Shown one piece after another: positions 3,509 through 59,102 of a stretch of 64,000 nucleotides of DNA; within the stretch, counting starts at the first letter, position 1; each line of letters begins with the position of its first letter. A program made the position numbers and the translations under genes. The DNA comes from a virus. The stretch is taken from the IMG/VR virus record IMGVR_UViG_3300045988_154761, positions 96,001 through 160,000 of that record. One strand, written 5' to 3'. The notes under the pieces are model-generated. The model saw only the letters and a list, made by a program, of their open reading frames with translations. It was not told where the DNA came from and made no database searches.

Positions 3509-3916
3509 ATGTAGATAGAAAATAATCGAGATAGAGGTAGAGCAGGATTAAGTTTAGCTATTGCTTATTTTGGTAGCAATGGTTATACTGTTAATCTTCC
3601 TATTAATGATACTCAATGGTATGATTTAGTAATTGAAAAAGATGGTAAATTTGAAACTGTTTAGTGTAAATTCACGGGAAGTAAAGAGAATGAAGTTAAC
3701 TTGACTTCTTGTGGTGGCACAAATGGTTCAAGATATGATTCAGTTTTAAATCATCCTTTAGATTGGTTATTTTGTGCGGATAAAGATAAAAATCTTTATC
3801 TGATTCCGATGGAAGATTTAAGAAAAGCTGGAAATACAAAAGCTATTTCTTTAAGAAAAGCTCCCAATTCTAATAAGCAAGGTTTTAATACTTATACTTA
3901 TTTGGTAGAAATTTAA
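3509..3916 (+). CDS. PD-(D/E)XK endonuclease of the group I intron-associated / homing type; 2 in-frame TAG
   Basis: ATG after GGAGGAA; TAG at codon 2 and at 3662-3664; motifs YDLVIEKDG and V-TAG-CK match the D...(E/Q)xK core. Confidence 0.7.
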
Positions 3917-3918
3917 AT

Positions 3919-4003
3919 GGGTGAGTAGTGAATCGGCAAACACGACAGACTGTAAATTTGTTTCCTAACGGAGTAGAAGGGTCGGCACCTTCCTCACCCA
4001 CCA
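3919..4003 (+). tRNA. tRNA-Tyr(GTA)
   Basis: acceptor GGGTGAG/CTCACCC, loop CTGTAAA, long variable arm, CCA; atypical T loop GTCGGCA. Confidence 0.75.
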
Positions 4004-4026
4004 ATAAAATTTTTGTTTTAAAACTC

Positions 4027-4055
4027 TTGACAAAATGAAAATCTTATGCTATAGT
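4027..4055 (+). promoter_or_regulatory. sigma70/sigmaA-like promoter driving E5, E6 and tRNA-Leu
   Basis: TTGACA 4027-4032, 17 nt, TGC-TATAGT (4050-4055). Confidence 0.7.
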
Positions 4056-4132
4056 AAAAATATGATAAAGATACAAATTTATTTGTAAGCTAATTGTTCA
4101 TTTTTTATTGTTCATAAAAGCATTCCTTTCAG

Positions 4133-4263
4133 GTAGACTCTAACAGCAACTTTACAATCACAAATGCTATGGGTCTGTTTGTTGGAGGTTCGAATCCTTC
4201 ACTCCCGACCATCGGGAGTTAGCTCAACGGATAGAGCAATAGATTTTGTAAAAATGAGTCTAG
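4133..4263 (+). ncRNA. ACAGCAA closing-helix element, copy E5, enclosing a circularly permuted tRNA-like body
   Basis: TAGACTC (4134-4140) pairs with GAGTCTA (4256-4262); ACAGCAA 4143-4149; order is TCTGT, variable region, T arm GGAGG-TTCGAAT-CCTTC, ACTCCCG-A-CCA-T-CGGGAGT, D arm GCTC-AACGGATA-GAGC, ATAGA. Confidence 0.65.
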
Positions 4264-4324
4264 TCAATAAATTAATAAATTGACGCTCCTATTTTTCTAA
4301 TAGGCAAATATAAATTCCTTTCAA

Positions 4325-4442
4325 GTAGACACGTACAGCAAAATTACTTGATGCTTTAATATGGAAAATTAACGATAAGGTTCGACTCCTTAATCTTCTT
4401 TGGAAGATGCGTGGTTGCTGGAAATCAAAAAACGTGTCTAGG
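4325..4442 (+). ncRNA. ACAGCAA closing-helix element, copy E6 (tRNA-mimic core, related to E1)
   Basis: TAGACACGT (4326-4334) pairs with ACGTGTCTA (4432-4440); ACAGCAA 4335-4341; T arm TAAGG-TTCGACT-CCTTA and capped hairpin ATCTTC-TTTG-GAAGAT. Confidence 0.65.
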
Positions 4443-4457
4443 TTAAGTATTAATTAT

Positions 4458-4542
4458 GCAGGATTGGCGGAATTGGCAGACGCGACGGATTCAAGTCCCG
4501 TTTCCTAATGGAGTAAGAGTTCAAGTCTCTTATCCTGCACCA
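4458..4542 (+). tRNA. tRNA-Leu(CAA)
   Basis: acceptor GCAGGAT/ATCCTGC, loop TTCAAGT, long variable arm, T arm AGAG-TTCAAGT-CTCT, CCA; A31:C39 mismatch. Confidence 0.8.
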
Positions 4543-4991
4543 TAGTCTTGATGATAGACTAACAAAACATCATCCCCCAACGCCCGTCCGAAGTCTTGGA
4601 GTAGAGAACAAGTGAATGGTTCTCGAACGCAAAGTAAGCTGTCATAAGCTGAAAAAGGCTATAAGCCGCACATGGGTAGAACACAGATATATGGTGAGAG
4701 ATGTTAGGGTGCGAATGTAACATCAAAAGCCTACAGCGAAAAGCTATACGGAGAAGTCTGTGCCGTGTTTACGGGAATAGGTGGTTGCGTACCTATTCAA
4801 ACAAAAACTCTGATTACTGCAACTAAATCGGGGTAGGTATTGAGGTTATGGGTCATATAACCTTAAAACACAATAAGCCGAGCATACTGCTTATTGCTCC
4901 TAACGGGTGGTGCTGAGGATGAACAACAAAAGCCAAGTTATAGAGTTCTTGTAAAAAACTCTGTTGCTATTTGAAAGAATAGCTCAATTAT
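4543..4991 (+). ncRNA. unclassified ~450 nt GC-rich structured spacer (U1) between complete tRNAs
   Basis: no ORF; many hairpins (ATGTTA/TAACAT, ATAGGT/ACCTAT, GGTTAT/ATAACC, ATAAGC/GCTTAT, AGAGTT/AACTCT, GCTATT/AATAGC). Confidence 0.35.
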
Positions 4992-5067
4992 GGGCCTGTA
5001 ACTCAGTTGGGAGAGTGTCTGCTTTGCACGCAGGAAGTCGCAAGTTCAAGTCTTGTCAGGTCCACCA
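4992..5067 (+). tRNA. tRNA-Ala(TGC)
   Basis: acceptor GGGCCTG/CAGGTCC with G3:U70, loop TTTGCAC, T arm TTCAAGT, CCA. Confidence 0.85.
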
Positions 5068-5521
5068 TAAGAGTTAGTTGCTCTCTTAGAATAAAAAGCA
5101 CCGTATTAACACAAGTTTACGATAATTAACTGGCCCTCGTCTGCGGGTAAACAGCAGTTTTAGGCTACTATAAGCCGAAGTTTTAAGGGCAGTTTCTTTA
5201 AAAAACATGCATATGGTTTTTCTTGTTATCTCTTTTTTATCCTAAAAATAAGACGTAGCAGCATGACTTGAGGCTATACATCAAGCTCCTGAGACCGAAG
5301 AAAAAAAGCTTCCTGTATGTCAATGGGAAAATAATCTATCTGTTTCTTAATAACAGGTGGGAGGGAGTATTTTAGGTCGGCAAGACCATGAGAGGATAGC
5401 GCTGTTCTCTCAACCCTTTGCAAAGGTTGCTGATGGGTTTTCCAAACGGATGTGGAAATTAAATGAATGGAAGGGTATAATTCAGCCCAAAATCAGCTCT
5501 AAAATTCAAGAAAATATATTT
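5068..5521 (+). ncRNA. unclassified ~450 nt structured spacer (U2)
   Basis: only a spurious 65-aa ORF; three-way junction GCCCT/AGGGC enclosing CTGC-GGGTAAACA-GCAG and GGCT-ACTATA-AGCC near 5140-5205. Confidence 0.3.
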
Positions 5522-5599
5522 GGGTGTGTAGTTCAGTCTGGTCAGAACACTTGACTGTTAATCAAGGAGTCGAAGGTTCAAATCCTTCCATACCCGCCA
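5522..5599 (+). tRNA. tRNA-Asn(GTT)
   Basis: acceptor GGGTGTG/CATACCC, loop CTGTTAA, T arm GAAGG-TTCAAAT-CCTTC, G73, CCA. Confidence 0.85.
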
Positions 5600-5952
5600 A
5601 AAGTGGAGAGTGTAGGTTCGAGTCCTGCCCCGCTCGTGGGAAACCCTTGCAGGAAGCTGTTAGGTACAGCGCCACTTAGAATTTCTTTCACCTTATTACG
5701 CGAAATATGGGATTGAGATGTTGCTTTAGTCGGGTTCTTTTACAGCAGAAAATAAGAACGCACCTGTTTAATTGGGTTTTTCAGTTCAGTAAAAACAAGA
5801 AAAACCTCGGTTGTTTAGAAATTTTCTTCTGATATTGAATGAAAACAAATAGAGAATTCTCTCATTGCAATGCCGAAAGGTAGTAAGTTACGAATTTACC
5901 CATGATAAATTACGAACTTGCTACCGAGTAGGGATAAGAGAGAATTAAACAT
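5600..5952 (+). ncRNA. unclassified ~350 nt structured spacer (U3)
   Basis: ORF-free; AAGTGG (5601-5606)/CCACTT (5672-5677) closes a 77 nt module; 10 bp stem GTAGTAAGTT/AACTTGCTAC; CC-GAAA-GG tetraloop hairpin. Confidence 0.3.
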
Positions 5953-6028
5953 GCTTTGGTAGCTCAATTGGTAGAGCAGTGGACTGAAAATCCACGTGTA
6001 GCCAGTTCAATTCTGGCCTAAAGCACCA
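5953..6028 (+). tRNA. tRNA-Phe(GAA)
   Basis: acceptor GCTTTGG/CTAAAGC, D arm GCTC-AATTGGTA-GAGC, loop CTGAAAA, T arm GCCAG-TTCAATT-CTGGC, CCA. Confidence 0.9.
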
Positions 6029-6029
6029 T

Positions 6030-6113
6030 TGCTGGCGAGTGAAACGGATATATAAATCACGCTTGGCTCATACCCAAGTAATAGTGGGTTCGACTCCCAT
6101 GCTTCAGCAACCA
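6030..6113 (+). tRNA. tRNA with CAT anticodon (Met or Ile2 type), irregular acceptor and oversized D loop
   Basis: anticodon arm CTTGG-CTCATAC-CCAAG, D stem GTGA/TCAC with 14 nt loop, T arm GTGGG-TTCGACT-CCCAT, CCA; acceptor needs a bulge or a mismatch. Confidence 0.55.
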
Positions 6114-6137
6114 AAAAACAAAAGGAAGTAAATTCTA

Positions 6138-6443
6138 ATGACTGATTTTAAGACTTACATTTATTAGACAGCAAGTAATAAAAAGTTTGTTTATAGATGT
6201 CCTCATTGTAATAAAGGGATAATGCAAGTAGCAGAAATTAAAACTGTTAAAGATGAAACTAATATTTTATCTTGGAATTATACTTGTCCAGTTTGTAAGA
6301 AACAAATGGTTTCTATTGAAAAAGATGGTTGTTCTTCTTTTAAAAGTGTGTTCCCTCCAATGACTCAAATTAGTGATAAAGAATTTACTGATATTAAAAA
6401 GGATGTAGGAGAAAAAGGTATCTATCTGTTCTCTGAAATATAA
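6138..6443 (+). CDS. small zinc-ribbon protein (101 aa), 1 in-frame TAG
   Basis: ATG 6138 after AAAGGAAG; TAG at codon 10; CPHC...CPVC; the track ORF 6222-6443 is its 3' part. Confidence 0.6.
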
Positions 6444-6450
6444 AATAAAT

Positions 6451-6545
6451 GCTAGCGTACAGAAGTGGTCATAACTGCCATCACTTGAAATGATGTGTGA
6501 CGGCTTGTATCCGTCTCGTGAGTTCGAATCTTACCGCTAGTGCCA
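6451..6545 (+). tRNA. tRNA-Ser(TGA)
   Basis: acceptor GCTAGCG/CGCTAGT, anticodon arm CATCA-CTTGAAA-TGATG, long variable arm, T arm GTGAG-TTCGAAT-CTTAC, G73, CCA. Confidence 0.85.
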
Positions 6546-6565
6546 TTAAAAACGGAGTCTTTAAT

Positions 6566-6769
6566 ATGAAAATCTGGAATGGAAATGATTTTGAATATCT
6601 TGGTTATTTTGTAAAAAACAACAAGAAAGCTAAATATTTTGAGGTTTTTGACAAGAATGGCAATCTTCTTTTTAGACAAACTAATTGGGGTCATGCTTGT
6701 GTGACTTCAGTTAAACATAAGATTGAAGACTTTCATAAAAAATATAGACAGGAGATAAAAAATGAGTAA
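6566..6769 (+). CDS. hypothetical protein (67 aa)
   Basis: first ATG downstream of tRNA-Ser; the longer track ORF (6497) would overlap the tRNA. Confidence 0.6.
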   Translation: MKIWNGNDFEYLGYFVKNNKKAKYFEVFDKNGNLLFRQTNWGHACVTSVKHKIEDFHKKYRQEIKNE

Positions 6770-7277
6770 TAATAATTCAATCGAAATCGAACGTAAGTTT
6801 TTAATTTCTGGTTTTCCTAAAGTTGATTTTGACGAAGTTGGAATTGTTAAAACTATTTATATTAATATCAAATATAATTCTGATGGAAAAATTTTACAGG
6901 AAATTCGTATAAGACGTTGGTTTGAAAGTGGCAAAGGTTATCGTCCAGATACTCTTACTTTCAAATCTGGTGGTACTTTAACTCGCACTGAAATTGAAAC
7001 AAATCTTACAGATAATTCTTTGTTTGACTGTTTTAATGAACTTGGTTATAATCCTATTGTAAAAGATTATAGAGGTCTTTACAATAATGGTTATTTAATT
7101 GAATTCAATCTTGTAGATGGTGGAAGTGAGACTGCTTTCTATTATGCCGAAGTTGAATTCAATTCTGAGGAAGAAGCCAATAGTTTTGTTTGGCCTTTTC
7201 CTGAAGTATTTATTGAGGAAGTTACTAATAAGCCTGAATACAAAATGGCGAATTATTGGAAACGTACTCGTGGATAA
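6762..7277 (+). CDS. CYTH-domain (triphosphate tunnel metalloenzyme) protein
   Basis: N-terminal IEIERKFLI (ExExK signature) and YYAEVEF near the C-terminus. Confidence 0.75.
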   Translation: MSNNNSIEIERKFLISGFPKVDFDEVGIVKTIYINIKYNSDGKILQEIRIRRWFESGKGYRPDTLTFKSGGTLTRTEIETNLTDNSLFDCFNELGYNPIVKDYRGLYNNGYLIEFNLVDGGSETAFYYAEVEFNSEEEANSFVWPFPEVFIEEVTNKPEYKMANYWKRTRG

Positions 7278-7301
7278 GGACTATTATTTAGTCCTTTATT
7301 T
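7277..7301 (+). terminator. intrinsic terminator-like hairpin
   Basis: AGGACT/AGTCCT stem followed by TTTATTT. Confidence 0.5.
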
Positions 7302-7377
7302 GCTGGATTAGTTCAGTTGATAGAACGTATGATTTGTAATCATAATGTCAGGGGTTTGAGTCCCTTATCCAGCTCCA
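7302..7377 (+). tRNA. tRNA-Thr(TGT)
   Basis: acceptor GCTGGAT/ATCCAGC, anticodon arm TATGA-TTTGTAA-TCATA, T arm AGGGG-TTTGAGT-CCCTT, CCA. Confidence 0.85.
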
Positions 7378-7414
7378 TGAACTTTTTTATAAAATAAAAA
7401 AGAGGATTTTTATT

Positions 7415-7606
7415 ATGGACGAATTTTTAATCTCCGAAATCTTTGAGCTGATTAAAACTTTAAAGAAAGACAAGTATACCAAGTATACCATGAAAGATGT
7501 TAATACCATTTGCGATTTGCTTGGTATTGAATTATTTTGGTATCAAAAGTTTGTTCTTCTTCGTCAGCTTAATGATAAAAATTATATGAGGTATATATGC
7601 CGATAA
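7415..7606 (+). CDS. hypothetical protein (63 aa)
   Basis: ATG after AAAGAGGA; overlaps the next gene by 10 nt. Confidence 0.6.
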   Translation: MDEFLISEIFELIKTLKKDKYTKYTMKDVNTICDLLGIELFWYQKFVLLRQLNDKNYMRYICR

Positions 7607-7866
7607 GAAACGGAAACAATGATATTTATAGTGACATTTTCTTCCAATATTTGAATGAGAATGAAGAGAAGATGATTAATGAAACCGCTTCTAAGATGGA
7701 AGAACGAAATCCGATTCTTTATCCTAAAGATGTTTCAGTAGCAATTTTGAAATCCATCTATAGTGATTATAAGAAATATCTTTATGAGCACGGATATACT
7801 TTTAAGAAAGAATACTTAGAAGAATACTTTAAAAATTTATCAGAAGAAATTTTAAAAAGTACTTGA
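7597..7866 (+). CDS. hypothetical protein (89 aa)
   Basis: track ORF; its TGA stop lies inside the next promoter -35. Confidence 0.65.
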   Translation: MPIRNGNNDIYSDIFFQYLNENEEKMINETASKMEERNPILYPKDVSVAILKSIYSDYKKYLYEHGYTFKKEYLEEYFKNLSEEILKST

Positions 7867-7891
7867 CAAGATGATGAGTATGTGGTATACT
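7863..7891 (+). promoter_or_regulatory. sigma70/sigmaA-like promoter ahead of tRNA-Arg and tRNA-Gln
   Basis: TTGACA 7863-7868, 17 nt, TGG-TATACT (7886-7891). Confidence 0.7.
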
Positions 7892-7932
7892 TAAGATGTA
7901 GTTGAGATAAGAAATAAGTAAATCTTTGATAT

Positions 7933-8007
7933 GTGGACGTAGTTTAATGGCTAAAACGGTGGCCTCCGGTTCCGCAGATAGGGTTTCGATTACCCCCGTC
8001 CACTCCA
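7933..8007 (+). tRNA. tRNA-Arg(CCG)
   Basis: acceptor GTGGACG/CGTCCAC, loop CTCCGGT, T loop TTCGATT, CCA; one mismatch each in the anticodon and T stems. Confidence 0.7.
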
Positions 8008-8058
8008 GAAAAACAAATGTCTCTCTCTTGTAGACAGACAAGATTTCCTTTTTTGTGT

Positions 8059-8165
8059 ACTTCGTGGTGGTAACAGTACGATAAATAAAATAAGCCATGT
8101 CCTGTCGGACTCAGAAATGAGATGGATGTCCTCTGTGGAGAATCGGGATTCAGGGGCGAAGTACA
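8059..8165 (+). ncRNA. unclassified ~107 nt structured element between tRNA-Arg and tRNA-Gln
   Basis: 8 bp closing helix GTACTTCG (8059-8066)/CGAAGTAC (8158-8165); internal hairpins GTCC-TGTC-GGAC and CCAT...ATGG. Confidence 0.35.
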
Positions 8166-8172
8166 AAAATAT

Positions 8173-8246
8173 TGAGCATTAGAATAATGGTAGTTCATTA
8201 GGCTTTGACCCTAATGGTGGGGGTTCGAATCCCTCATGCTCAGCCA
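8173..8246 (+). tRNA. tRNA-Gln(TTG)
   Basis: acceptor TGAGCAT/ATGCTCA (U1:A72), anticodon arm TTAGG-CTTTGAC-CCTAA, G73, CCA. Confidence 0.85.
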
Positions 8247-8260
8247 ATTAAAGGAGATAT

Positions 8261-9232
8261 ATGGATATTTTAATTGATTAGTACACAAAAGAAGAGTTAT
8301 AGCAAATTTTAAATAATAGTTCTTCTTATTCTGACGCTTTAAGAAAATTAGGATATAATTCTACATCAAACGCTAATCGTCGGCATTTAAAGAGAATTAT
8401 AAAAGAAAAAAACTTAGAAGTTAATTTTCTTCCAAAGACATACATAAAGAAATTATCTGATGAAGAAATTTTCAAAGAAGATTCTCATGTTAGTTAGAGT
8501 TGTGTGCGAGAACATTTTTTAGCTTTAAATATAGTTGAGTATAAATGTTCTATATGTGGATAGGAACCGTTTTGGAATGGAAAACCTTTAACTTTAACAT
8601 TAGACCACATTAATGGTAAAAACCGAGATAACAGACTTGATAATTTAAGGTGGGTTTGTCCTAATTGCGATAGATAGCTTCCTATTTTTGGGCGGAAAAA
8701 TAAAACAGAGTTAAAAAAGAAGAAGTTAAAAAAATTTGATTTGGTAAAAAACAACAAACCAAAATCTTACAAAAAATATTTTAAAATTTACAAAGATAAC
8801 AAAAGATTTTGTTTGGGTTGTGGAAAAGAAATTACCAATAATTCTCTATATTGTTTTGATTGTGCTAATAAGCATAGAAGAAAACAAAAAGATAGACCAA
8901 CCAAAGAAGAGTTAGAAAAAATGTTAAAAGAAGAAAAGGGTAATTTTTCAAAAATAGCTAACCAATTTGGTATTTCTGATAATGCAGTTAGAAAATGGTG
9001 TAATAATTATGGTTTATCCTGTAAATCATCTGCTTATAAAGCACCAAAAAAAGAAAAACAACAACGAATTGAGAAACCTGTAAAGCAATTAGATTTAAAT
9101 GGTAATTTAATTAAAAGCTATTCTTCTATTAATCAAGCTTATGTTGAAACTAAAATAGAGCATATTTCTCAATGTGCGAACGGGTTAAGGAAAACAGCTC
9201 GGGGTTATAATTGGGAATTTGAAAAAGATTAA
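8261..9232 (+). CDS. HNH homing endonuclease with C-terminal HTH/NUMOD-like modules; 5 in-frame TAG
   Basis: ATG after AAGGAGA; frame checked end to end (TAG only); LDHINGKNRDNRLDNLRWVCPNCDR-TAG-LP; the track ORF 8741-9232 is its 3' part. Confidence 0.8.
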
Positions 9233-9251
9233 AAATTTTTTAACAATTAAC

Positions 9252-9373
9252 GTAGACGCTTACAGCAAACAATAATAAAATCAAATTCTATTAAAAAAGA
9301 TTTAGGGTATTGTTCCTTGCTAATTAGTTTATGATGCTTTCATGATTCTCCTTTGTTAGTATTATGCGTCTAG
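9252..9373 (+). ncRNA. ACAGCAA closing-helix element, copy E7
   Basis: TAGACGC (9253-9259) pairs with GCGTCTA (9366-9372); ACAGCAA 9262-9268; no T arm in the core. Confidence 0.55.
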
Positions 9374-9380
9374 TTTATAA

Positions 9381-9447
9381 GTGCCGTACCAAGGTTGGAG
9401 TCACTCGACGGAGGGCTTAAGAAGGGGTTCGAATCCCCCACGGTGCA
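9381..9447 (+). ncRNA. tRNA-like fragment (acceptor-like stem plus T arm, no foldable D or anticodon arms, no CCA)
   Basis: GTGCCGT/ACGGTGC stem and GGGG-TTCGAAT-CCCC; the middle 36 nt do not fold as a cloverleaf. Confidence 0.3.
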
Positions 9448-9503
9448 AGATTGAATTGTTTGGAGTACTACAAACAAGATGGTAAGTTATTGATGATTTA
9501 AAA

Positions 9504-9568
9504 GTAAACCCTTACAGCAATTTAACTATTTAATTTTTGCTTGAAAAAAGATTAAGGATAGGGTTTAG
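9504..9568 (+). ncRNA. ACAGCAA closing-helix element, copy E8 (short form)
   Basis: TAAACCCT (9505-9512) pairs with AGGGTTTA (9560-9567); ACAGCAA 9514-9520. Confidence 0.55.
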
Positions 9569-9584
9569 TCCTGTAATGTTGAAA

Positions 9585-9671
9585 GTAGACACTAACAGCA
9601 ATTAAAATAAAAATACTGGGAAATATATTTAATTGGAATAAATACTTTTTTAGATTTTTAAAGTGTCTAGG
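9585..9671 (+). ncRNA. ACAGCAA closing-helix element, copy E9 (short form)
   Basis: TAGACAC (9586-9592) pairs with GTGTCTA (9663-9669); ACAGCAA 9595-9601. Confidence 0.6.
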
Positions 9672-9680
9672 ATTTTATAT

Positions 9681-9816
9681 GGGGATGTATCTCAATTGGT
9701 CAGAGGGCCCGACTTATGTTTTAGTAGTTTAAAAGTAAAACTTTTAATGCAAGTGCAAGACTTGTCTAAAACACCAAATCGGGAAGTTGAGTGTTCGAGC
9801 CACTCCATTCCCACCA
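9681..9816 (+). tRNA. tRNA gene with a 59 nt insertion in the anticodon loop (Ile-UAU if excised at 37/38)
   Basis: acceptor GGGGATG/CATTCCC, D arm TCTC-AATTGGTCA-GAGG, anticodon stem CCCGA (9708-9712)/TCGGG (9779-9783) separated by 66 nt starting CTTATG, T arm GAGTG-TTCGAGC-CACTC, CCA. Confidence 0.65.
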
Positions 9817-9837
9817 ACGGTAGCAAATTCAAATAAA

Positions 9838-9907
9838 GTAGACTCTTACAGCAATTACTTAGAGACTTGTGATTTGGGATTACATATGTTTTGAAAAATG
9901 AGTCTAG
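9838..9907 (+). ncRNA. ACAGCAA closing-helix element, copy E10 (short form)
   Basis: TAGACTC (9839-9845) pairs with GAGTCTA (9900-9906); ACAGCAA 9848-9854. Confidence 0.6.
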
Positions 9908-9915
9908 CTTTATTA

Positions 9916-9992
9916 GCGCCTGTAGTCTAATTGGATAAAACCGCACTCTTCTAAAGTGTATCTTATGAGTTCGAATCTCGTCAGGCGTGCCA
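9916..9992 (+). tRNA. tRNA-Arg(TCT)
   Basis: acceptor GCGCCTG/CAGGCGT, anticodon arm GCACT-CTTCTAA-AGTGT, T arm ATGAG-TTCGAAT-CTCGT, CCA. Confidence 0.8.
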
Positions 9993-10018
9993 ATGAAGTT
10001 TCAAACTTCATTTAATTT
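9993..10018 (+). terminator. intrinsic terminator-like hairpin
   Basis: ATGAAGTT-TCA-AACTTCAT followed by a T-rich tract. Confidence 0.55.
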
Positions 10019-10022
10019 ATTA

Positions 10023-10333
10023 TTGCGGAGTAGTGTAACGGTTAGCACAGCGGTCTTGAATTAGGGACTCCTATTTGGAAACGAATAGGTAATAAAGAGG
10101 GCTAAAACGGTTGACATCTTATTATTAAGTTAGTAAGACTATCCCGTGCTAAATCAGTTCAAAAAACTGTAAATGTGTAGAGAGCATAGACTCTCCACCT
10201 AAACCGAAAGGCAAGGTGATAATGTGCTCCAGACTACAACGATTTTTATCGGCTATGGTGACATAGAGTAGCAAGCTAAAACCGTACCATTCTGAGTGGG
10301 TTAGATTGAGTTCGAATCTCAACTCCGCTGCCA
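10023..10333 (+). tRNA. split tRNA gene interrupted by a 220 nt group I-like intron; predicted spliced anticodon CTA (amber suppressor), alternative TGA
   Basis: 5' part TGCGGAG-TA-GTGT-AACGGTTA-GCAC-A-GCGGT-CT (10023-10055); 3' part CTAAA-ACCGT, 20 nt variable region, TTGAG-TTCGAAT-CTCAA-CTCCGCT-G-CCA (10276-10333). Confidence 0.55.
10056..10275 (+). ncRNA. group I-like intron candidate inside the split tRNA
   Basis: 5' exon ends in U, intron ends in G; P1 GGTCT (10051-10055) with GGACT (10064-10068) including the U:G pair; P10 TTAG (10060-10063) with CTAA (10276-10279); P2 CCTATT/AATAGG; R-like TCCAGACTACAA (10228-10239); GAAA-capped hairpin; the P3/P7 core was not resolved. Confidence 0.45.
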
Positions 10334-10438: not shown

Positions 10439-11410
10439 ATGCAAGGAAGTATTTATATTATTCATAATTCAATAAACGATAAAAAGTATATTGGATAGAC
10501 TTCAAGAACAGTTGAAATTCGTTGGAAAGAGCATTTACAAGAAGCTCAAAATTTAGATTGCCATTATGCAATTTATAATGCTATAAGAAAATATGGGGTT
10601 GAAAATTTTTGGGTAGAAGAAATAGAAAAATGTGAAACGAAAGATTTAGATGAAAGAGAAAAATATTGGATAAAATATTATAATTCTTTTAAAAAAGGTT
10701 ATAATTCAACTCTTCGGGGAACCACAAATTTCAATTGTTTTTATAATAAATTAACTTTTGAAAATTCAAACTGTGTTTTTGATTCAATAGAGAATTTTTC
10801 AAGAATATATAGTTAGTATCATAATATATCATTGAGTCAAGTAAAAGACAAAATATTAAGAGCAATAAATAATGATAAAACTTTTTATGGTAAAAAGCCT
10901 GTAATTTTAAATTGGGATGTAGATGTATCTTCAGATAAAGACAAAGAAAAATTTGTTAAATAGTTTGAAGATATATATTAGAATAAAAGTGTAAGATGTA
11001 TTGAACTTAAAAAAAATTTTAATACTGTTGGGCAAGCGGCAAAGTATTTTGTTGAAAAAGAAATATATACTGGAAAATCTAGTAATCCTCTTCAAGCTGT
11101 TACAGTTTTAATTACTAAATCAATAAAAGACAATAAAGCTTGTAAATCTTTGAATAATTATCACTTTAAATATACATAGAAAAATAAAAAGATATTAAAC
11201 AAATCCTCTTTAAATCCTTATCAAAAAGTTCCAGTAAAATGTAATGAATTGAATTTAGTTTTTAATTCATAGGTTGAAGCTGCTTAGTATATGATAGATA
11301 ACAAATTGTGGGATGTTAGTTTAAAAACTGCACGATTAAGAATAACTGACTTAGTAAATAATAAGATAGAAAAATATAAAGGTTATTCTTTTTGTAAAAT
11401 ACAAACTTAA
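10439..11410 (+). CDS. GIY-YIG homing endonuclease with repeated NUMOD/IENR-like DNA-binding modules; 7 in-frame TAG
   Basis: ATG after GAAGGAGA; all 323 codons checked, TAG is the only interruption; GSIYIIHNSINDKKYIG-TAG-TSRTVEIRWKEH, KYWIKYYNS. Confidence 0.85.
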
Positions 11411-15450: not shown

Positions 15451-15666
15451 TTGGAAGTATTGGAAAGTAAAACAGTTGTTCCTTTTACGCCAGAAGAATT
15501 TGCTGAAAGAGCACAAGAGATTGTAAATTTATGCCAAGGTGATGCAACTCTTTTAAATGGTTGGGGACATAGAGCGATGGATAGTTTAATGGAAGATGTG
15601 TTATGGTCTTTAGGTTTTGATAAGCGGATTGAAATTTTTGACCAGTTACGTCGGGTGAGGTATTAA
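15451..15666 (+). CDS. hypothetical protein (71 aa), TTG start
   Basis: TTG 9 nt after TTGGAGA; TAATG junction with the next gene. Confidence 0.5.
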   Translation: MEVLESKTVVPFTPEEFAERAQEIVNLCQGDATLLNGWGHRAMDSLMEDVLWSLGFDKRIEIFDQLRRVRY

Positions 15667-16214
15667 TGAAGCAACTTAGGAAAAATGTTTTTGAGACTAA
15701 TTCTTCAAGTGTTCATTCATTGAGTATTAGTAGTAAAGATAATTATGATTATACTCAGTTAGATGATTATATTGAAGAAGATTATGGCCACAATGGTTAC
15801 GGTAAGTATCTAAAATTAAATTTTGAAGCCTTTGGATGGGGTTGGGATTCTGATTTAGATGACAATAGCGCAATAGCTAAACTTGAATATATTTTAACTG
15901 CTATAACTTGTTTCCAAGGTTATAATGTTAATTGGAGCAGCAAAGAAGATAAAGAAGAAGCTATTAAAGAAGTTATGGAATCTGATGATTTCCAAAAGTT
16001 TGAAGATGATGTAAAGTACGCTCTTTCTAAGCATGATATTCACATTACAGGAATTGAAATTAGTCCTGATGAAGATGGTTATGTAGACCATCAAAGTCTT
16101 GATTATTATGTTTCTGATGGAATGTATTATATTTTTGCAAGAGATGGAATTACATTAGAAGATTATATTTTTAATAAATGTTATAGTTTGATTATCGACA
16201 ATGACAATCACTAA
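15666..16214 (+). CDS. FETNSSS-family protein, paralog 1 (function unknown)
   Basis: N-terminus MKQLRKNVFETNSSSVHSLSI; C-terminal GYVDHQS motif. Confidence 0.75.
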   Translation: MKQLRKNVFETNSSSVHSLSISSKDNYDYTQLDDYIEEDYGHNGYGKYLKLNFEAFGWGWDSDLDDNSAIAKLEYILTAITCFQGYNVNWSSKEDKEEAIKEVMESDDFQKFEDDVKYALSKHDIHITGIEISPDEDGYVDHQSLDYYVSDGMYYIFARDGITLEDYIFNKCYSLIIDNDNH

Positions 16215-40445: not shown

Positions 40446-40446
40446 A

Positions 40447-49075: not shown

Positions 49076-50041
49076 TTGAAAGAATTTCAAGAATTTAAAG
49101 ATTTAGAATAGTTTTATTTAAAAGCACAAGAGATATTTAAAGATAGAAAAAGAGTGGATAGTTACAAAGAAATGTGTAAGCTTTTAGATGAACCTTGTTA
49201 TGCTTCACCTTCTTGTAAAGAACGTCAAAAAATACAATTTACCACTTGGAAAAAATGTTTTACATGGCGCAAATCAAAATAGAAGTTTATTAATATTAAA
49301 ATGATTCCGAAAGAAATTTTTGACGAAAATCTTTAGGAACTTAAGATTAAACGAGAAGAAAAATCAAAAGCGCAATCTGAAAAAACTCTTCAAAATTATA
49401 TTAAGAATTATAAACTTAATCATTTATTAACTGGAAGATGGCCTTCTCGTCCCTGCTCTTGGGATAAGAGAGGTGTATATATAGTTTATAATAAATCTAA
49501 CAAAAATTCTTACAAAGGTCCTGTTTGTTATATTGGTAGTACTGCTGTTGCTTTTTATAAAAGATTTAATAACCATTTACATCCTTCTCAAACCATGTCT
49601 CAAGAAATAAGAGATTTAATGGAAGAGAAAGATACTCATATTAACTTTTTGTGGTTCGCTCCTGATGATGCAACAGAAGATGAAATACATGAGGAAGAAG
49701 CCGAGTTCTGGTCTATATATCAGAAAAAAGGATATCATATGCTTAATAAGCATATTCCTCAATATCATAGAACTTTAAAAAATCCTAATAAAAAGAAAAT
49801 TGCTCCCCATGGTTCTTATTTAACAGATAAAGACTGGGTTCAATATAAAAAGATTAGTGCGAAAATTCCTTCTGACAAGATTCCACTTTTAATTAAATTC
49901 TTACAAAAAGATTTGAAATTAGAATTTTCAGAAGATTTTAATATGTGGACTGAACCTGACATGATTCCCAAAATACAAAAGTTTGTAGAAGAAAATAAAA
50001 AGAAAGTAGAAATACGAGAGGTTGATAAAGATGACGAATAA
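49076..50041 (+). CDS. GIY-YIG-domain endonuclease-like protein with an N-terminal domain shared with the next gene; TTG start, 3 in-frame TAG
   Basis: TTG 8 nt after AAAGGAGA; frame checked; GVYIVYNKSN...VCYIGSTAVAFYKRFNNHL...EAEFWSIYQKKGYHMLN. Confidence 0.65.
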
Positions 50042-51392
50042 TTAGCTTTATAAAAAATGCCAATAGAAATTAAAGAATGTTACAGAGGTAGAATCTTATA
50101 AAGCTATGTGTGCTTTATTAAATGAAGAATACTTCAAGTACAAGAAAAGTAAAGATAGATAGCTTGAAGTTTGGAAAACCTGTTTTAGCTATGATTTACT
50201 TAAAAGTGGTAAGTTTATTAATATTAGACTTCTTTCGGAATCAGAACATTTCCAGACCCTTACGGAACTGTTTAAAACAGATTCCATTTCTTACTCCCTT
50301 TGTGGCTTGCTTAACCAATATAGTGATGAAACAAATGAAAGTATTGTTTATATAACTAAATCTGAACTTGCTTTTTGTTTAGGATTTTTTAATGAATCTT
50401 ATAGCACAGTAAAAAAATATCCTGAAGTGTATTCTTATCAAGTTGAAAATGATATTTTAGCCCTTAGAAATAGTCGATATCCGTTTATTAAAGAACATAA
50501 AGATTCTATTAAAGGTTGGAGAAAAGTAAAAGAAAATTCTTCTAAACCATCTAATGACACTCTTCAAAAAGTAGAAGATTTTACTATCCATTATTCATCT
50601 AATTATGAATATAAAGTTGAAAATGCCTTAAAGAATCTTGCTGATAGTGGTTATATTACTTTACATGAAGTCTATATGGGTGCTTTTGTTGATGATAACT
50701 TTAACTGGATTCCTAATATAGACAATATTTCAAATAAAGATGGCAGATATTATTTTAAAAGTGATGAAACAACTACTTTGGTTATTCCATATAAAGATAG
50801 AGAGCTTACACCAGAAGAAGAAGTTAAATATATTCAAATTACCAATGAAATTTTCAGACAAATGAATCTTGATGGAATTCAAGATGTTTTTAAACAAAAT
50901 AAACAACTTAAATTTAGACAACAATTATTTCCTCAATTACTTTCTAATATGGGATGCTTATATATTTATAAAGCATATCGTATTGGATTTTCTTCTGAAC
51001 ATATTGGAGACAAAGAAACAAAAGTAAAAACTAAATTACAATCTACTTTTGATATAGCTTCTTTAAAGAAAGCATTAGCAGATAATAATAGTACAGCTAC
51101 TAAAGCCAATCTTAAAAATGCTCAAAAACGTATTGAAGATAATATTTCTTCTAAGCATACTTTAGGTAATACTTTATCTGAAAGTCAAAAATTAGAACAA
51201 GAATATTCTACTTTTATATTAAAAAAGTTATCAAAAGAATTACTTAATATAGATGTTGATTCCTATTTTCCATCCACTTCTGATTCTTCTAACGCAATTC
51301 AATTTATTAATTCAAAGAAAAAAGCTATTTTTAACAATAGTTTACGACGTTTAAATAATAAAAGATAGTATGATGAAAAAGCTCAAAAATAA
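50031..51392 (+). CDS. hypothetical protein (453 aa) sharing a ~60-aa N-terminal domain with 49076; 4 TAG read as sense
   Basis: ATG 50031 overlaps the upstream gene by 11 nt; TAG at 50043, 50064, 50160 and 51366; first TAA at 51390-51392. Confidence 0.55.
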
Positions 51393-55455: not shown

Positions 55456-56043
55456 ATGAACAAGAAAGAAAATAAATATCGCTTACGCGATGAGTATATT
55501 AAACATAAAAAAGAACAGTTTGAGAAAAATCTTGAAAGGGCTTTTGATGAAAATAATTTACATGTAGTTATTTTTACTGATAATCAGCAGTCTTCTTGTT
55601 ATGGGCATCATGAGTACTGTGATATGTATGGTGGTTGTGATAACACTTGGAGAGATAACATTAGAAATTTATTGACAGGAAAACTTAAATATTATAAGAT
55701 GACTGTTAATAAGTGGATTACTTATAAATGTGATTGTGGTTGTAATACTTTTTATATTTATAAGGATTGGTTTGTGTGTTCTGAATGTTTTTCTGAACAT
55801 ATTATGAATGACTTTGTTATTACTTATAAAACTAAAGAAGATGCTGAAAAAGTAACTATGCCGATGACTGGAACAGTTGGAATGAATACATGGCATAGAT
55901 TTGGTTTAATTAGTAAATATGAGTTTGATAAATTTATGAAGAACTGTACTAACCCTGAACAAGTTGTATACTAGCAAATAAATTTACCAGAAGTATACTA
56001 GCAAATAAATTTACCAGAACAGGAGGTTTTTGGTAATGGATAA
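55456..56043 (+). CDS. zinc-ribbon protein, paralog of 56036-56800; extended through 2 TAG codons
   Basis: the track ORF ends at TAG 55972-55974; reading TAG as sense gives VYQQINLPE twice and a TAA at 56041-56043. Confidence 0.55.
55966..56019 (+). repeat. 27 bp perfect tandem duplication, each copy carrying a TAG
   Basis: GTATACTAGCAAATAAATTTACCAGAA at 55966-55992 and 55993-56019. Confidence 0.9.
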
Positions 56044-56800
56044 GATTACTTATTTAAGAAAGACTAAAGAGAAAATTGAAAATGATTATCTTGAAAAGCT
56101 TAATGAACTTGATAAAAGTTTTAAGAGTGATAATGTCATGATTACTGTTTATATTGAGAAGATTATTTTTGAAAATCTTGATTATAAGGTCAATAATGGT
56201 GACTTAGAACTTGATAATTATGATTTGAAGACATTGCTGAGAGGAAAGTTGCGCTTTCCTATTAATAGTCGCTATGCTGATGGAAAATATGTTACTCAGT
56301 GGTTTGTGGATAGATGTCCTAAGTGTGGTTGCTATTTATATTATCCTAAATACAATCCTAATTTTGGATATACTGGGGTATGTGCTAATTGTTTTGAGGA
56401 AAGAATTTTAGAGAGATTAAAAGCTATTAATTTTCCTACTGAAAAGTCTGGTCAGCTTGTGAATTATAAGTATTACACTGTTGCTGGTACTATGAATAGA
56501 AATGAACTTGAACAGTTTATGAGTGAACTTGGGATTGAAAAGTATTGCAATGGCACTTTAATGAGTATTGATAAGGATTTAAATATATTAGAATTAGGTG
56601 ATATTATTGATAGTGGCAATGCTATCAGTTCGTGTAGCATTGATAGTGACAATAAAGAAAAAGACACTTCTGAAAAGGACACTTCTGAAAAGGACACTTC
56701 TGAAAAAGATATTTCTGCTCGTGATGATATTGAAAAAACCATGAAGAATTTCTTTGGTAATATTTGGGATAATCTTTATCAAGATAAACAATCTTCCTAA
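56036..56800 (+). CDS. zinc-ribbon protein with C-terminal EKDTS repeats, paralog of 55456
   Basis: ATG after AGGAGG; CPKCGC...CANC. Confidence 0.7.
   Translation: MDKITYLRKTKEKIENDYLEKLNELDKSFKSDNVMITVYIEKIIFENLDYKVNNGDLELDNYDLKTLLRGKLRFPINSRYADGKYVTQWFVDRCPKCGCYLYYPKYNPNFGYTGVCANCFEERILERLKAINFPTEKSGQLVNYKYYTVAGTMNRNELEQFMSELGIEKYCNGTLMSIDKDLNILELGDIIDSGNAISSCSIDSDNKEKDTSEKDTSEKDTSEKDISARDDIEKTMKNFFGNIWDNLYQDKQSS
56657..56716 (+). repeat. 15 bp tandem repeat, 4 copies, in-frame (EKDTS)
   Basis: GAAAA(A/G)GACACTTCT x3 plus one degenerate copy. Confidence 0.85.
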
Positions 56801-56934
56801 AGGGTAATAAGAAAAATGGAGTGAAATATAGCTAACAAGATTCTTGTGAAAGGTTGAATAAATTACAAGAAAGTTGTAAAGTTTGAGAGTGAATTATTGT
56901 TAAACGATAATTTTGTTTGAGAAAAAACGTAATC

Positions 56935-57003
56935 TGGAACGTTATGGTACATTTGGAACATTTAAAGGAATGTTTGGAACATTCTTGGAATATTTGGTAC
57001 ATT
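56935..57003 (+). repeat. array of six 9 bp direct repeats TGG(A/T)A(C/T)(A/G)TT (iteron-like)
   Basis: copies at 56935, 56945, 56954, 56975, 56986 and 56995 in an intergenic region. Confidence 0.75.
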
Positions 57004-57185
57004 AGCTCTGACGTACCGAAGGCCAATTTTGCCCATTTTCCTATTCTGGTGCTCTTTTAGATAAGGAGAGGTAGGCACAAACACAATTCTTTTTTCAAAA
57101 AAAATTTACAAAAAGTTCATAATCTGTTCACAATTTAAACAAACTGCCCTCAAATGTAAGAATTGTTACAATCTGTAATAACTTC

Positions 57186-57214
57186 TTGACAACACCTCCT
57201 TCCTATGTTATAAT
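57186..57214 (+). promoter_or_regulatory. sigma70/sigmaA-like promoter
   Basis: TTGACA 57186-57191, 17 nt, TGT-TATAAT (57209-57214); followed by a ~165 nt leader. Confidence 0.7.
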
Positions 57215-57381
57215 ACTCTCATGGTTGTATAAAGTAGGTAATAAACATTATTGCCAACGACCTAAGCGTTAAGGGTGAGTAATCTATTAAGAATCCGTAT
57301 CTTAATATAAGTTATTCATCATATAGACTTAAGGAAGGAAAGAGCTTTGCCTTAATCAAGGTTAAGCCAAAAAAGCGATAA

Positions 57382-58296
57382 ATGAAAAACAAGAAATATA
57401 CAATTAAATATAGCAAGCCTAACCATAGCAACACAAACACAAACACAAACACCCCCACACATGAAGCACAGCTCACAAATACACATCCTCTAATTAAGAC
57501 AAGTATTTGTAAAGCGATTGCAACTTGTCTCACATTCAGTTTAGTGGTAAGTATAGTAGGGTATGCTCAAGCCTTAAATAAAACAGGCAAAGATAATACT
57601 TCAACCTTGAGTGAAACTGAAATCTCATCTCCTCATTATATTGCCATTAAAAACTTTCAAACACACAAAGAAAATTATTGGGACATAAACAACATTGGAA
57701 ATGTTAGTCCTGATAGAATTTTTTATGTGGACATGAGTAAAATGGTTGAGAATAATGCTGAAAATAATGATGAACCTGTTTATATTTTTTCAGACATGAG
57801 CGTACAGTATTCCGAAGGTCAAATTTCTGAAAGCAAGACTTCTGAACCTGAACATACAGAACCTAAGACCTCAACTTATCGCTACGCATATTTAATTCAT
57901 CTGACTGATTCTGAACGTTATACAGTTTATTCTGTTTTAGCAGGAGAAGTTGGAAATGCTTCTTATCGAGATAAACTTTTAGTAGCTCAATGTTTTTATG
58001 ATGGCTTAGTATATAATAAATGTACTCCTAAACAGTTAGCCAATAGTCAATATGATGGCTATAAAGATTTTAACAAATTTAAGGAAGAGTGTATTAAATG
58101 TAACAAAAACTATTATGAAGACATTGTAAAAGCTGTTGAAGAAGTTTTTGATAAGGGTAATGTTCCAGTAGATGAATTTATTCTTTATTTTTATGGTTAT
58201 AAAGGCTATACTTCTAAATGGCATGAAACTCAAAAATTAGTTGAACAAACAGATGTACATAAATATTTTGCTCAGTGGAAGGAACCGCAAATATAA
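57382..58296 (+). CDS. membrane-anchored protein with possible SleB-like cell-wall hydrolase domain
   Basis: NTNTNT low-complexity N-terminus, TM helix, C-terminal region SERYTVYSVLAGEVGNAS...LLVAQCFYD reminiscent of Hydrolase_2. Confidence 0.45.
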   Translation: MKNKKYTIKYSKPNHSNTNTNTNTPTHEAQLTNTHPLIKTSICKAIATCLTFSLVVSIVGYAQALNKTGKDNTSTLSETEISSPHYIAIKNFQTHKENYWDINNIGNVSPDRIFYVDMSKMVENNAENNDEPVYIFSDMSVQYSEGQISESKTSEPEHTEPKTSTYRYAYLIHLTDSERYTVYSVLAGEVGNASYRDKLLVAQCFYDGLVYNKCTPKQLANSQYDGYKDFNKFKEECIKCNKNYYEDIVKAVEEVFDKGNVPVDEFILYFYGYKGYTSKWHETQKLVEQTDVHKYFAQWKEPQI

Positions 58297-59102
58297 TGGG
58301 AAAATTTTAGGATTTAACAGGTCAAACTTTTGGAAACTTAAAAGTAATTGGTAAAACAACTGACCCAATAAAAAGTAAAAAAGGCAAGGGAGTATATTGG
58401 GATTGTGAATGTAAATGTGGAAAAATTACACAAGTTCACACAAGAGATTTAAAAAGTAACCATATACAATCTTGTGGTTGTTCTTACAGACCTGAACATA
58501 ACGATTATGAAGAATATGATGAAAACACTTATAAATTCTGGAATCGTGAACATACTGATTATTTTTTAAGTGACAAAAAAAATCTACAGAAGATTTTAAA
58601 TTATTATTGGAGAAAAGATTCTCTTGGATATTGGCTAACTCGAAAAATAATTAACGGAGAAAGGAAAATTATTAGACTCCACAAATATTTAAAAGATATT
58701 GATGACCCTAAAATTGTTGTTGACCACAAAGACGGAAACAAAGACAATAATAGGGACAATAATCTCAGAATAACCACCCAACAAAACAATACTTTAAATA
58801 AAAGTATTAGAACTGATAATAGTTCAAATATTTGTGGTGTAGAATTCATCAAAAGAATTAATCGTTGGAAAGCCACTATACAATATTCAGGTAAAAGAAT
58901 TACTTTAGGAGAGTATCCAAATTTTGACCAAGCCAAATTTGCCCGTTATTATGGAGAAGTCCAAATATTCAAAGAATTTGCTAGAGATTATGAAAGCAAA
59001 ATAAATTATCTAAAAGAAAATAAAGATGGAAATAAAGATATTATAGAAAAGCTTACAAAAAGAATTAAAAAGTATTATGATATCGAATGTGAAAACATCT
59101 GA
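58296..59102 (+). CDS. HNH endonuclease with AP2-type DNA-binding domain; 1 in-frame TAG
   Basis: TAATG junction; TAG at codon 5; VVDHKDGNKDNNRDNNLRITTQQNN and RWKATIQYSGKRITLGEY; TGA stop at 59100-59102. Confidence 0.75.

Follow-up and report, generated by a model that had tools for sequence, protein, structure and literature searches.

Probable reading of TAG as glutamine, and an intron-split amber-suppressor tRNA, in a lineage of large human-gut phages

What does TAG mean in a phage whose otherwise continuous genes are interrupted by this codon and by no other stop? The question is raised by a 64,000-nucleotide stretch of viral DNA (IMG/VR record IMGVR_UViG_3300045988_154761, positions 96,001 to 160,000; hereafter the window), in which fifteen frames between positions 3509 and 59102 contain TAG. 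An initial annotation of the sequence took TAG to be a sense codon, most likely for glutamine, concentrated in selfish-endonuclease and lysis genes. The analysis presented here agrees on the codon and its probable meaning, departs from the proposed concentration, and adds a decoder that had been overlooked, a tRNA(CUA) at 10024–10333 with a 219-nt intron inside. The explanation as a whole, which we regard as very probable, is that the window comes from a human-gut phage of roughly 205–225 kb (~210 kb) with genetic code 15, that TAG is read through by the phage's own suppressor tRNA, split by an intron in this strain, and that TAG usage follows a division between early and late genes. Genes are named below by the position of their first nucleotide, and the TAG-containing genes and the tRNA array of the window lie on the plus strand.

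A scan with TAA and TGA as the only stops, followed by explicit translation from the starts of the initial annotation, reproduced all fifteen frames, their 40 in-frame TAGs (2, 1, 5, 7, 4, 6, 1, 1, 1, 1, 1, 3, 4, 2 and 1 in order of position) and the complete lack of internal TAA or TGA. Two open reading frames (ORFs) that close at TAG (51366 and 55972) reach a TAA 8 and 23 codons further on, as had been stated. Read with code 11, plus-strand ORFs of at least 60 amino acids (aa) end in TAA (70), TGA (15) or TAG (4); two of the four TAG cases are spurious frames, and of the 89 ORFs counted no more than 2 are credible genes that close at TAG. The TAG-rich tail genes of relatives also close with TAA or TGA. 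The frame first called from a GTG at 40447 more likely starts at ATG 40426, which is the public gene call (101 aa) and makes its TAG codon 18; the public call for the 49076 gene starts at 49172, such that the first TAG (49109) may sit upstream of the true start. Two further TAGs, at 26778 and 32225, are in frame but in 5′ leaders, outside genes. Coding density had been suggested as a check, but each reassignment of TAG, TGA or TAA to sense raises density relative to table 11, and the measure is therefore not diagnostic. A count of long frames broken by one stop type was likewise discarded, as it consists mostly of neighbouring genes that share a frame and have a TAA between them. ORF statistics thus fail to separate TAG from TGA and TAA, and the case rests on homology, conservation among strains and the suppressor tRNA.

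Alignments with Pfam and PDB families (PDDEXK_5, GIY-YIG and I-TevI) run through the TAGs uninterrupted. The PD-(D/E)XK (PDDEXK_5) endonuclease gene at 3509–3916, with GGAGG 4 nt upstream of its ATG, has TAGs at 3512 (codon 2) and 3662, and the Pfam match of its product (residues 6–124, E 2.7e-11) spans TAG52; a PDB search with this protein returned nothing usable. In the GIY-YIG homing endonuclease encoded at 10439–11410 (TAGs at 10496, 10814, 10961, 10979, 11177, 11270 and 11285), TAG20 is spanned both by the Pfam GIY-YIG domain (residues 3–89, E 3.6e-10) and by an alignment of residues 1–90 with residues 1–91 of I-TevI (1mk0; E 7e-8). Outside the window, the 642-aa NrdD of a relative aligns end to end and gap-free with Thermotoga NrdD (E 1.8e-153) with 3 TAGs included, and a 1150-aa protein of a relative's tail module is encoded with 24 TAGs and no other stop. 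The initial annotation held that reading through TAG restores GIY-YIG, HNH, HNH-AP2 and PD-(D/E)XK endonucleases; Pfam finds the GIY-YIG, HNH and PD-(D/E)XK domains, but not AP2, with HNH_3 alone in the 58296 protein. A public protein collection already renders TAG as Q in these genes.

Conservation was assessed in 14–16 close relatives of 85–100% identity, the count varying by site, and TAG is kept over 13–16 strains at eight codons of five genes. A small zinc-ribbon protein is encoded within the tRNA array at 6138–6443, and its TAG (6165, codon 10) is kept in 16 loci; a 3-nt in-frame indel upstream of the TAG leaves the frame intact. The core gene at 22873–23343, to which no function has been assigned, is found in 15 of 15 strains, and its four TAGs (22894, 22909, 22921 and 23002; codons 8, 13, 17 and 44) are kept in 15–16 of 16 loci. 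Of 14 strains, 13 have TAG and one has GAA at codon 9 (35793) of a small core gene (35769–35984) with AGGAG ahead of its ATG. Another core gene (40426–40731) keeps its TAG (40477, codon 18 from ATG 40426) in 14 strains. The fifth gene, at 39027–40058, encodes a cell-wall-binding protein (phosphodiester-glycosidase-like plus SPOR; Pfam SPOR) whose homologues carry PF09992 (NAGPA) and PF05036, and its TAG (39039, codon 5) is also kept in 14 strains. Its residues 6–47 are conserved in homologues of 36–57% identity, and since these ~40 residues past TAG5 are conserved at such a distance, the protein cannot start downstream of the TAG.

The putative decoder stands at the end of the tRNA array. Default ARAGORN and Rfam searches of the window did not find a tRNA(CUA), which ARAGORN with intron search places at 10025–10329 with a 219-nt insert. 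Exon 1 (10024–10056) ends at U33 (ggtcT); the intron (10057–10275) lies in the anticodon loop, with a 5′ exon ending in U and an intron ending in G; and exon 2 (10276–10333) comprises the anticodon CTA (10276–10278), a long variable arm, a discriminator G and an encoded CCA. When joined, the exons form a cloverleaf that has the anticodon loop CUCUAAA and the long variable arm. A tRNA(CUA) was found in all ten strains examined, directly after tRNA-Arg(UCU). Five of the ten alleles are uninterrupted (related loci L014 9797–9874, L015 9782–9872, L017 9823–9893, L020 9799–9873 and L023 9823–9893), two have the window-type 219-nt intron and three have a different intron of 198 nt; the last three were read by eye, ARAGORN having mis-called such an allele as His(atg). 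The exons of the intron-less L015 allele are identical to those of the window, which fixes the splice junction at ggtcU/CUAaaacc. Across strains the locus holds three unrelated tRNA(CUA) bodies, one of class I, one of class II and a third type without encoded CCA. The 198-nt intron is placed after U35 of a different tRNA body, of which the L020 allele is the intron-less counterpart, and the window intron after nucleotide 33.

Several features indicate what kind of intron this is. The splice borders are ggtcU/uga...gcaaG/CUA in the window and cucU/gug...gaaaG/AAA in the L021 type, and the exon sequence GGUCU can pair with GGACU at intron nucleotides 9–13 (P1-like, judged by eye). The 198-nt intron of L021 matches the full Rfam Intron_gpI model with 34.2 bits (E 2.9e-7; gathering score 50), and the window intron aligns with it through the core. 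An 18-mer of the window intron is common to 51 IMG/VR loci, many of them inside tRNA genes (Leu-UAA, Phe-GAA and CUA), and one member of this family (L101), at 50.5 bits, reaches the Rfam gathering score. By these sequence relationships the window intron is probably of group I type, and it would be self-splicing. In the intron-bearing loci L016 and L018 the tRNA is followed by a homologue of the GIY-YIG gene, which none of the five intron-less alleles has behind it; the 10439 endonuclease, with its seven TAGs, would depend on the spliced product of the neighbouring tRNA. Rfam detected no theta-type ribozyme here. In phages sharing the intron 18-mer, RAGATH-33 RNAs (127–140 bits) lie at most ~100 nt from the motif (L083 1933–2061, L094 2396–2508, L096 227–339 and L115 1029–1157), and a further such locus has a ROOL RNA (290 bits) among its tRNAs (L085 7507–8092).

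As to the amino acid inserted, glutamine is the best assignment, in keeping with the initial annotation. Exchanges were counted in curated orthologous genes only; unfiltered and third-position-filtered tallies over all loci were rejected as contaminated by antisense frames and 5′ extensions (TAA, TGG). Among strains TAG exchanges mainly with CAA and CAG. The window TAG is CAA elsewhere at codons 101 and 139 of the 8261 gene, CAG or CAA in at least six strains at codon 27 (43404; WYQGNN) of a small gene at 43326–43583 (phrog_21328), and CAG in one strain at codon 35 (40164; NNDEQKQ) of a core gene at 40062–40445. The reverse case, TAG in a strain against CAA or CAG in the window, occurs at six sites: codon 219 of the 10439 gene, codon 18 of the frame counted from 40447, codon 51 of 49076, codon 90 of 25245 and codons 114 and 133 of 22873. 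The window codon is CAA at 25245 codon 90 and in the 40426 gene, and CAG at both 22873 sites. Exceptional partners are AAA and AAG (GIY-YIG gene), GAA (35769 codon 9), GAG and, where the alignment is poor, one GAT. CAA lies two mutations from TAG, yet is prominent, which argues for synonymous exchange. In addition, TAG36 of the relative's NrdD stands opposite Q in Thermotoga (TAG107 opposite A, TAG462 opposite N), and in the paralogous 50031 and 49076 genes KDRxLEV (x = TAG) aligns with KERQKIQ. The endonuclease-like genes contain 66 CAA, 3 CAG and 28 TAG codons, the TAG-free genes 130 CAA and 91 CAG. The tRNA contributes a Gln-like acceptor end: a U1.U72 mismatch and G73 occur in every suppressor allele whose sequence was read, and the phage tRNA-Gln(UUG) at 8173–8246 has U1-A72 and G73. 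Identity elements of Escherichia coli GlnRS include a weak 1:72 pair, G73 and U35. The suppressor would be charged with Gln by a host enzyme, and TAG is most likely read as Gln. The claim that TAG sits where the endonuclease families usually carry Gln is not supported as stated, as distant homologues have other residues at several positions (S in I-TevI, opposite TAG20); with distant homologues varying opposite TAG, the assignment rests mainly on close-strain comparisons.

The distribution of TAG differs from the sharp partition first described, in which mobile and lysis genes rich in TAG stood against a TAG-free bulk. Within the window, 28 of the 40 TAGs do fall in seven endonuclease-like or strain-variable genes, and the other 12 in eight core genes, mostly one each. 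In relatives, the tail genes are the most TAG-dense and genes for NrdD, ThyX, DnaQ-like and RecJ-like proteins also carry TAG; most of the window is taken up by early-type genes free of TAG, and the partition is an effect of looking at the window alone. The concentration in lysis genes comes down to one protein (39027, NAGPA plus SPOR), since none of the other TAG genes is assigned to a holin, endolysin or spanin family by PHROGs, Pfam or NCBIfam, and a Bax1-I membrane protein gene (42573–43262) and a weak holin_6_1 match at the window start are both without TAG. Related contigs were walked both ways, ~90 kb past the window, such that ~150 kb were sampled, including the window, of a ~210-kb genome. 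Over ~30 kb past the window end, relatives have small TAG-free genes and one 778-aa gene with a single TAG. Upstream, genes for a PARP, a Thg1-like protein, helicases, ligases, DnaB and a split DnaE are mostly TAG-free, and TAGs occur in those for NrdD (3), a DnaQ-like exonuclease (3), ThyX (2), a RecJ-like protein (3) and every endonuclease (5–9). Further upstream lies the tail module, with the 1150-aa protein (24 TAG, 20 CAA and 2 CAG codons), a 335–339-aa protein (7–9 TAGs) and a 408–412-aa PHROG ‘tail protein’ (E 1e-29; 7–10 TAGs), and still further a protein called as 1725 aa and cut by the locus end. Judged from the regions sampled, the genome pattern is one of TAG-free early-type blocks, among them long runs of ORFans, and TAG-rich late genes, and the endonucleases embedded in the early region share the late-gene codon style.

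The TAGs also cluster towards gene starts. The first TAG lies at codons 2–15 in 10 of the 15 genes, against 2.4 expected (P = 5e-6), and the starts ahead of early TAGs mostly have strong AGGAG-type ribosome-binding sites. ATG is directly followed by TAG in the PD-(D/E)XK gene (3509–3514) and, in relatives, in a ThyX-like gene and a small membrane protein gene (L145 2386–2391 and L146 3116–3121); in a fourth case (L200 6996) the start is probably mis-called. The proposed mechanism is that the phage-encoded amber suppressor translates TAG, most likely as Gln, after the 219-nt intron following U33 has, in this strain, been spliced out to create the CUA anticodon. Genes read by unmodified host machinery (the early-type blocks and most of the window) would avoid TAG and end in TAA or TGA. 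Those expressed once the suppressor is available (tail genes and free-standing homing endonucleases) would use TAG freely, largely in place of CAG. In conserved core genes, the one or few TAGs, usually within the first 15 codons, would act as an early stop until the suppressor is present, and these early TAGs may thus serve a timing or ‘gate’ function. A broader version, a layered translation gate in which the conserved TAGs at codons 5–18 of core genes and the TAG-dense endonucleases all await the spliced tRNA(CUA), is put forward tentatively and seems on the whole unlikely. If it were true, the spread of selfish elements would be linked mechanistically to the genetic-code switch, and the swapping of suppressor alleles at one locus between strains would be part of that conflict.

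Some results weigh against this explanation. Neither a release-factor gene nor one for an aminoacyl-tRNA synthetase was seen in the ~150 kb sampled, ~60 kb lying outside the sample; such accessory code-change genes (release factor 2, tRNA synthetase) are optional in published code-15 cases. The window intron itself has no Rfam match at E ≤ 10. By its long variable arm the window suppressor belongs to class II; tRNA-Gln normally has no such arm. Many Bacillota are without GlnRS and make Gln-tRNA via GluRS and GatCAB, a route by which charging of a CUA tRNA is not obvious. Residues other than Q stand opposite TAG at variable sites of distant homologues: S, as noted above; A and N in NrdD; and K, V, L and N in the SPOR protein. 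Some of these points bear on the possibility that TAG encodes another residue, namely Glu (through misacylation without amidation), Ser, Leu, Tyr or pyrrolysine, which we consider improbable. A long variable arm is typical of Ser, Leu and Tyr tRNAs, ARAGORN labels the window suppressor ‘Pyl’, the likely Bacillota host may be without GlnRS, and the S in I-TevI, the GAA at 35769 codon 9 and the AAA and AAG in the GIY-YIG gene fit a residue other than Gln. The curated exchanges are nevertheless dominated by CAA and CAG, of which CAA is no one-step neighbour of TAG, and TCN, TTR and TAY rarely partner it. In other strains the locus holds suppressors with class I bodies but an unchanged U1.U72/G73 end, which indicates that the variable arm is not the common feature. 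Pyrrolysine was rejected, as the tRNA is without the compact tRNA-Pyl form and pyl genes were not seen in the sampled ~150 kb. That the TAG frames are decaying pseudogenes of selfish endonucleases, with TAG an ordinary stop, is scarcely credible. Homing endonucleases often degenerate, the 28 TAGs mentioned above are in genes of variable presence between strains, and in one relative (L019) a change from TGG to TAG coincides with a shortened public gene call. Yet the frames are broken by TAG alone, with TAA, TGA and frameshifts all absent; the TAGs of core genes are conserved over 13–16 strains; essential genes of relatives carry TAG (NrdD and tail proteins, one with 24); and the tRNA(CUA) is conserved in each strain examined. 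The initial annotation, which treated these genes as functional, is upheld on this point.

The TAG richness of the endonucleases could also reflect neutral drift rather than regulation, with AT-rich third positions and CAG-to-TAG changes accumulating as in late genes, a real possibility if one short of an even chance. On this view these enzymes would not be needed before the suppressor appears. Their TAGs are spread along the genes and variable between strains. Endonuclease-like genes have a G+C content at third codon positions of 0.166, compared with 0.251 in the bulk, and an AAG fraction of 0.14 compared with 0.41, and the two longest tail genes (24 TAGs in 1150 codons and 10 in 408) exceed the endonuclease-like set (12.5 per 1000 codons) in TAG density. 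Drift accounts less readily for the preference of TAG over CAG by 28 to 3, though G-ending codons are otherwise avoided, for TAGs at codons 2–14 in four endonuclease genes within an N-terminal clustering that is significant overall, or for the conservation of single early TAGs in core genes. Gating has also been proposed for a recoded intron endonuclease in other gut phages (Borges et al., 10.1101/2021.08.26.457843).

The remaining TAG-containing genes of the window vary in their occurrence. An HNH_3 plus NUMOD1 endonuclease is encoded at 8261–9232 (TAGs at 8279, 8300, 8495, 8561 and 8675), its Pfam match being below cutoff for HNH_3 (E 2.9e-4) and E 1.5e-5 for NUMOD1. A mobile gene at 25245–26477 (TAGs at 25251, 25263, 25311, 25815, 25863 and 26028) encodes a protein with three DUF4379 zinc-finger domains (Pfam E 4.3e-51). 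The strain-variable gene at 49076–50041 is weakly GIY-YIG-like (TAGs at 49109, 49280 and 49334), and the N-terminus of its product is paralogous to that of the next gene, at 50031–51392 (TAGs at 50043, 50064, 50160 and 51366), which is also strain-variable and has no assigned function. A further strain-variable gene at 58296–59102, with a TAG at 58308 (codon 5), encodes an HNH_3 endonuclease (E 7e-6, above cutoff). The 25245 gene occurs in 2 of 15 strains; among the loci that cover the respective sites, the genes at 50031, 49076, 8261 and 10439 occur in 1, 4, 8 and 2–3, respectively. In the gene at 55456–56043, the TAGs (55972 and 55999) are near the 3′ end; codon 173 is TGG in three strains, where the frame continues, and the TAG here is either read through or truncating.

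The G+C content of the 64-kb window is 32%, and the plus strand holds nearly all genes up to ~60 kb. Exact matches to its proteins are found on human-gut metagenome contigs of 205–225 kb, and one window protein is present in more than 2,000 blocks of a public assembly index, which indicates that the lineage is common in the gut. GenBank phages searched by megablast and tblastn include no close relative of the window, and the top protein matches, at ~37% identity, are to Bacillus and Enterococcus phages. Shine-Dalgarno use together with YorF and Bacillus/Enterococcus-phage affinities suggests that the host is probably a member of the Bacillota. Most window genes are without a family match; the exceptions include genes for a radical SAM protein, DUF2828/DUF7788, a C5 methylase, an RNase H-like protein, the Bax1-I membrane protein and a GP88-like protein. 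An attempt to sample other genome regions via homologues of the HNH gene returned the identical site only. Four paralogous genes (15666–16214, 17463–18098, 18506–18943 and 21865–22464), with neither a family match nor a TAG, share a near-identical start, MKQ[IL]R[KR]NVFETNSSS.HSL. Antisense open frames of 260–580 codons at 23445–25184 (−), 20874–21860 (−) and 16629–17420 (−) face three genes (23415–25181, 20913–21896 and 16599–17453, respectively); they were rejected as genes and are by-products of the avoidance of TTA, CTA and TCA, arising from the higher G+C of the sense genes (37–43%) and the near-absence of these codons. The DUF2828 gene, when codon-shuffled, still gives long antisense runs (mean 364 of 589 codons), and this analysis indicates that its codon usage differs from that of its neighbours. 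In relatives, a TAG-rich endonuclease gene interrupts the DnaE-type polymerase gene, some strains have an intein (Intein_splicing) near the radical SAM gene, and a LAGLIDADG gene lies near DnaB (L200 118–7024, L206 12272–17312, L016 19511–19957 and L206 4193–5044 for the whole set). The phage lineage is heavily colonised by mobile elements.

The tRNA array at 388–10333 contains 13 uninterrupted tRNAs, the tRNA-Gln(UUG) among them, two with mini-inserts in the anticodon loop, and the suppressor. The two are at 3244–3390 (insert 3278–3344) and 9681–9816 (insert 9718–9776); the latter, labelled ‘SeC(tca)’ by ARAGORN and considered as an opal suppressor, is a tRNA-Ile(UAU) with insert. Similar mini-inserts occur in relatives (L002 4486–4623, L003 10923–11063 and 12762–12886, L017 9486–9619 and L019 1426–1570). 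They are 50–90 nt long and present in some strains only, in tRNAs for Lys-UUU, Ile-UAU, Pro-UGG, Glu-UUC, Gly-UCC and others, and intron-less alleles place the insertion points after nucleotide 32, 34 or 36. Each insert is itself tRNA-like, with a 7-bp closing ‘acceptor’ stem, a T-arm-like hairpin (loop TTCAAAT, TTCGAAT or TGCAAGA) and then usually A plus CCA. At least 12 different closing stems were found, with perfect pairing (e.g. GTTTTAG/CTAAAAC and CTGAGAG/CTTTCAG), and the Rfam tRNA model matches one insert (3278–3341, 39.9 bits). One idea is that RNase P and RNase Z might cut them out, the ends then being ligated; no description of such tRNA-like anticodon-loop inserts was found in the literature. 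Upstream of the window, relatives encode a T4 Rnl1-type RNA ligase (PF09511, E 9e-13) beside a P-loop kinase (AAA_33), as well as a Thg1-like tRNA 5′-end enzyme and a PARP-like protein (L146 191–2550, L002 1192–2016 and L145 10001–11260 for this toolkit). Together these make up a set for tRNA repair and ligation, which could act on the interrupted tRNAs. Also in the array, 4157–4255 (+) weakly matches the Y RNA-like YrlA (40.6 bits, gathering 69; E 1.9e-6).

These results leave the current picture of stop-codon recoding unchanged and extend the code-15 phages by a lineage that is large, prevalent and probably infects Bacillota. Gene calling with table 11 fails on this lineage and breaks up the tail genes, NrdD and every endonuclease. 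The decoder, being split by an intron, escapes standard tRNA scans. The suppressor with and without intron, its three unrelated bodies and the conserved TAGs near gene starts together provide a natural allelic series for the timing of the code switch.

Group I introns occur in bacterial and phage tRNA genes, such as Azoarcus tRNA-Ile and cyanobacterial tRNA-Leu(UAA), and an intron and a free-standing endonuclease may spread together by ‘collaborative homing’. The window intron resembles these tRNA introns in its length (~200–220 nt), its position in the anticodon loop, the U at its 5′ site and its last base G, and the locus resembles collaborative homing in that a GIY-YIG gene is found immediately downstream only where the intron is present. 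Unlike those introns, its host gene is an amber suppressor, insertion is after nucleotide 33 (window) or 35 (L021), and the neighbouring endonuclease, with seven TAGs, would need the spliced tRNA. No report of an intron-split suppressor tRNA was found in the literature. Theta (HDV-like) ribozymes adjoin the suppressor tRNAs of recoded gut phages (PMC10879173), and there too RNA processing is coupled to maturation of tRNA-Sup, although here the element is an intron within the tRNA rather than a ribozyme in the 3′ trailer.

Reading TAG as Gln is an already described phage strategy. Code 15 has been proven by proteomics in crAss-like phages (PMC9523058), and block-wise code use has been described in the Mgcod preprint (10.1101/2022.06.29.495998). 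The gut phage phAss-1 (proposed Phassvirus) has TAG as Gln in 41 ORFs, including structural ones, a tRNA-Sup(CTA), a LAGLIDADG endonuclease and no dedicated aminoacyl-tRNA synthetase (PMC10607447), a gene likewise not seen in the ~150 kb sampled here; it differs in its size (136 kb) and its three suppressor tRNA genes, for which no intron is mentioned (PMC10607447), and has no detectable relationship to the window. Borges et al. (10.1101/2021.08.26.457843) described gut phages with TAG as Gln, suppressor tRNAs and standard-code early genes, in which lysis-cassette genes and a group I intron endonuclease are preferentially recoded, and proposed that in-frame stops delay the endonuclease. The early/late mosaic is thus already published, and recoding of lysis-cassette genes and of a homing endonuclease was reported there too. 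With the code-15 gut phages (crAss-like, Lak and the Borges clades), the window shares TAG as probable Gln, a phage tRNA(CUA), a standard-code early and recoded late division and an origin in the human gut. It differs from them as a separate ~210-kb lineage with no close GenBank relative, and the new details are a suppressor split by an intron in some strains beside a TAG-dependent GIY-YIG gene, several unrelated suppressor bodies at one locus, and a strong clustering of TAGs within the first 15 codons of otherwise early-type core genes.

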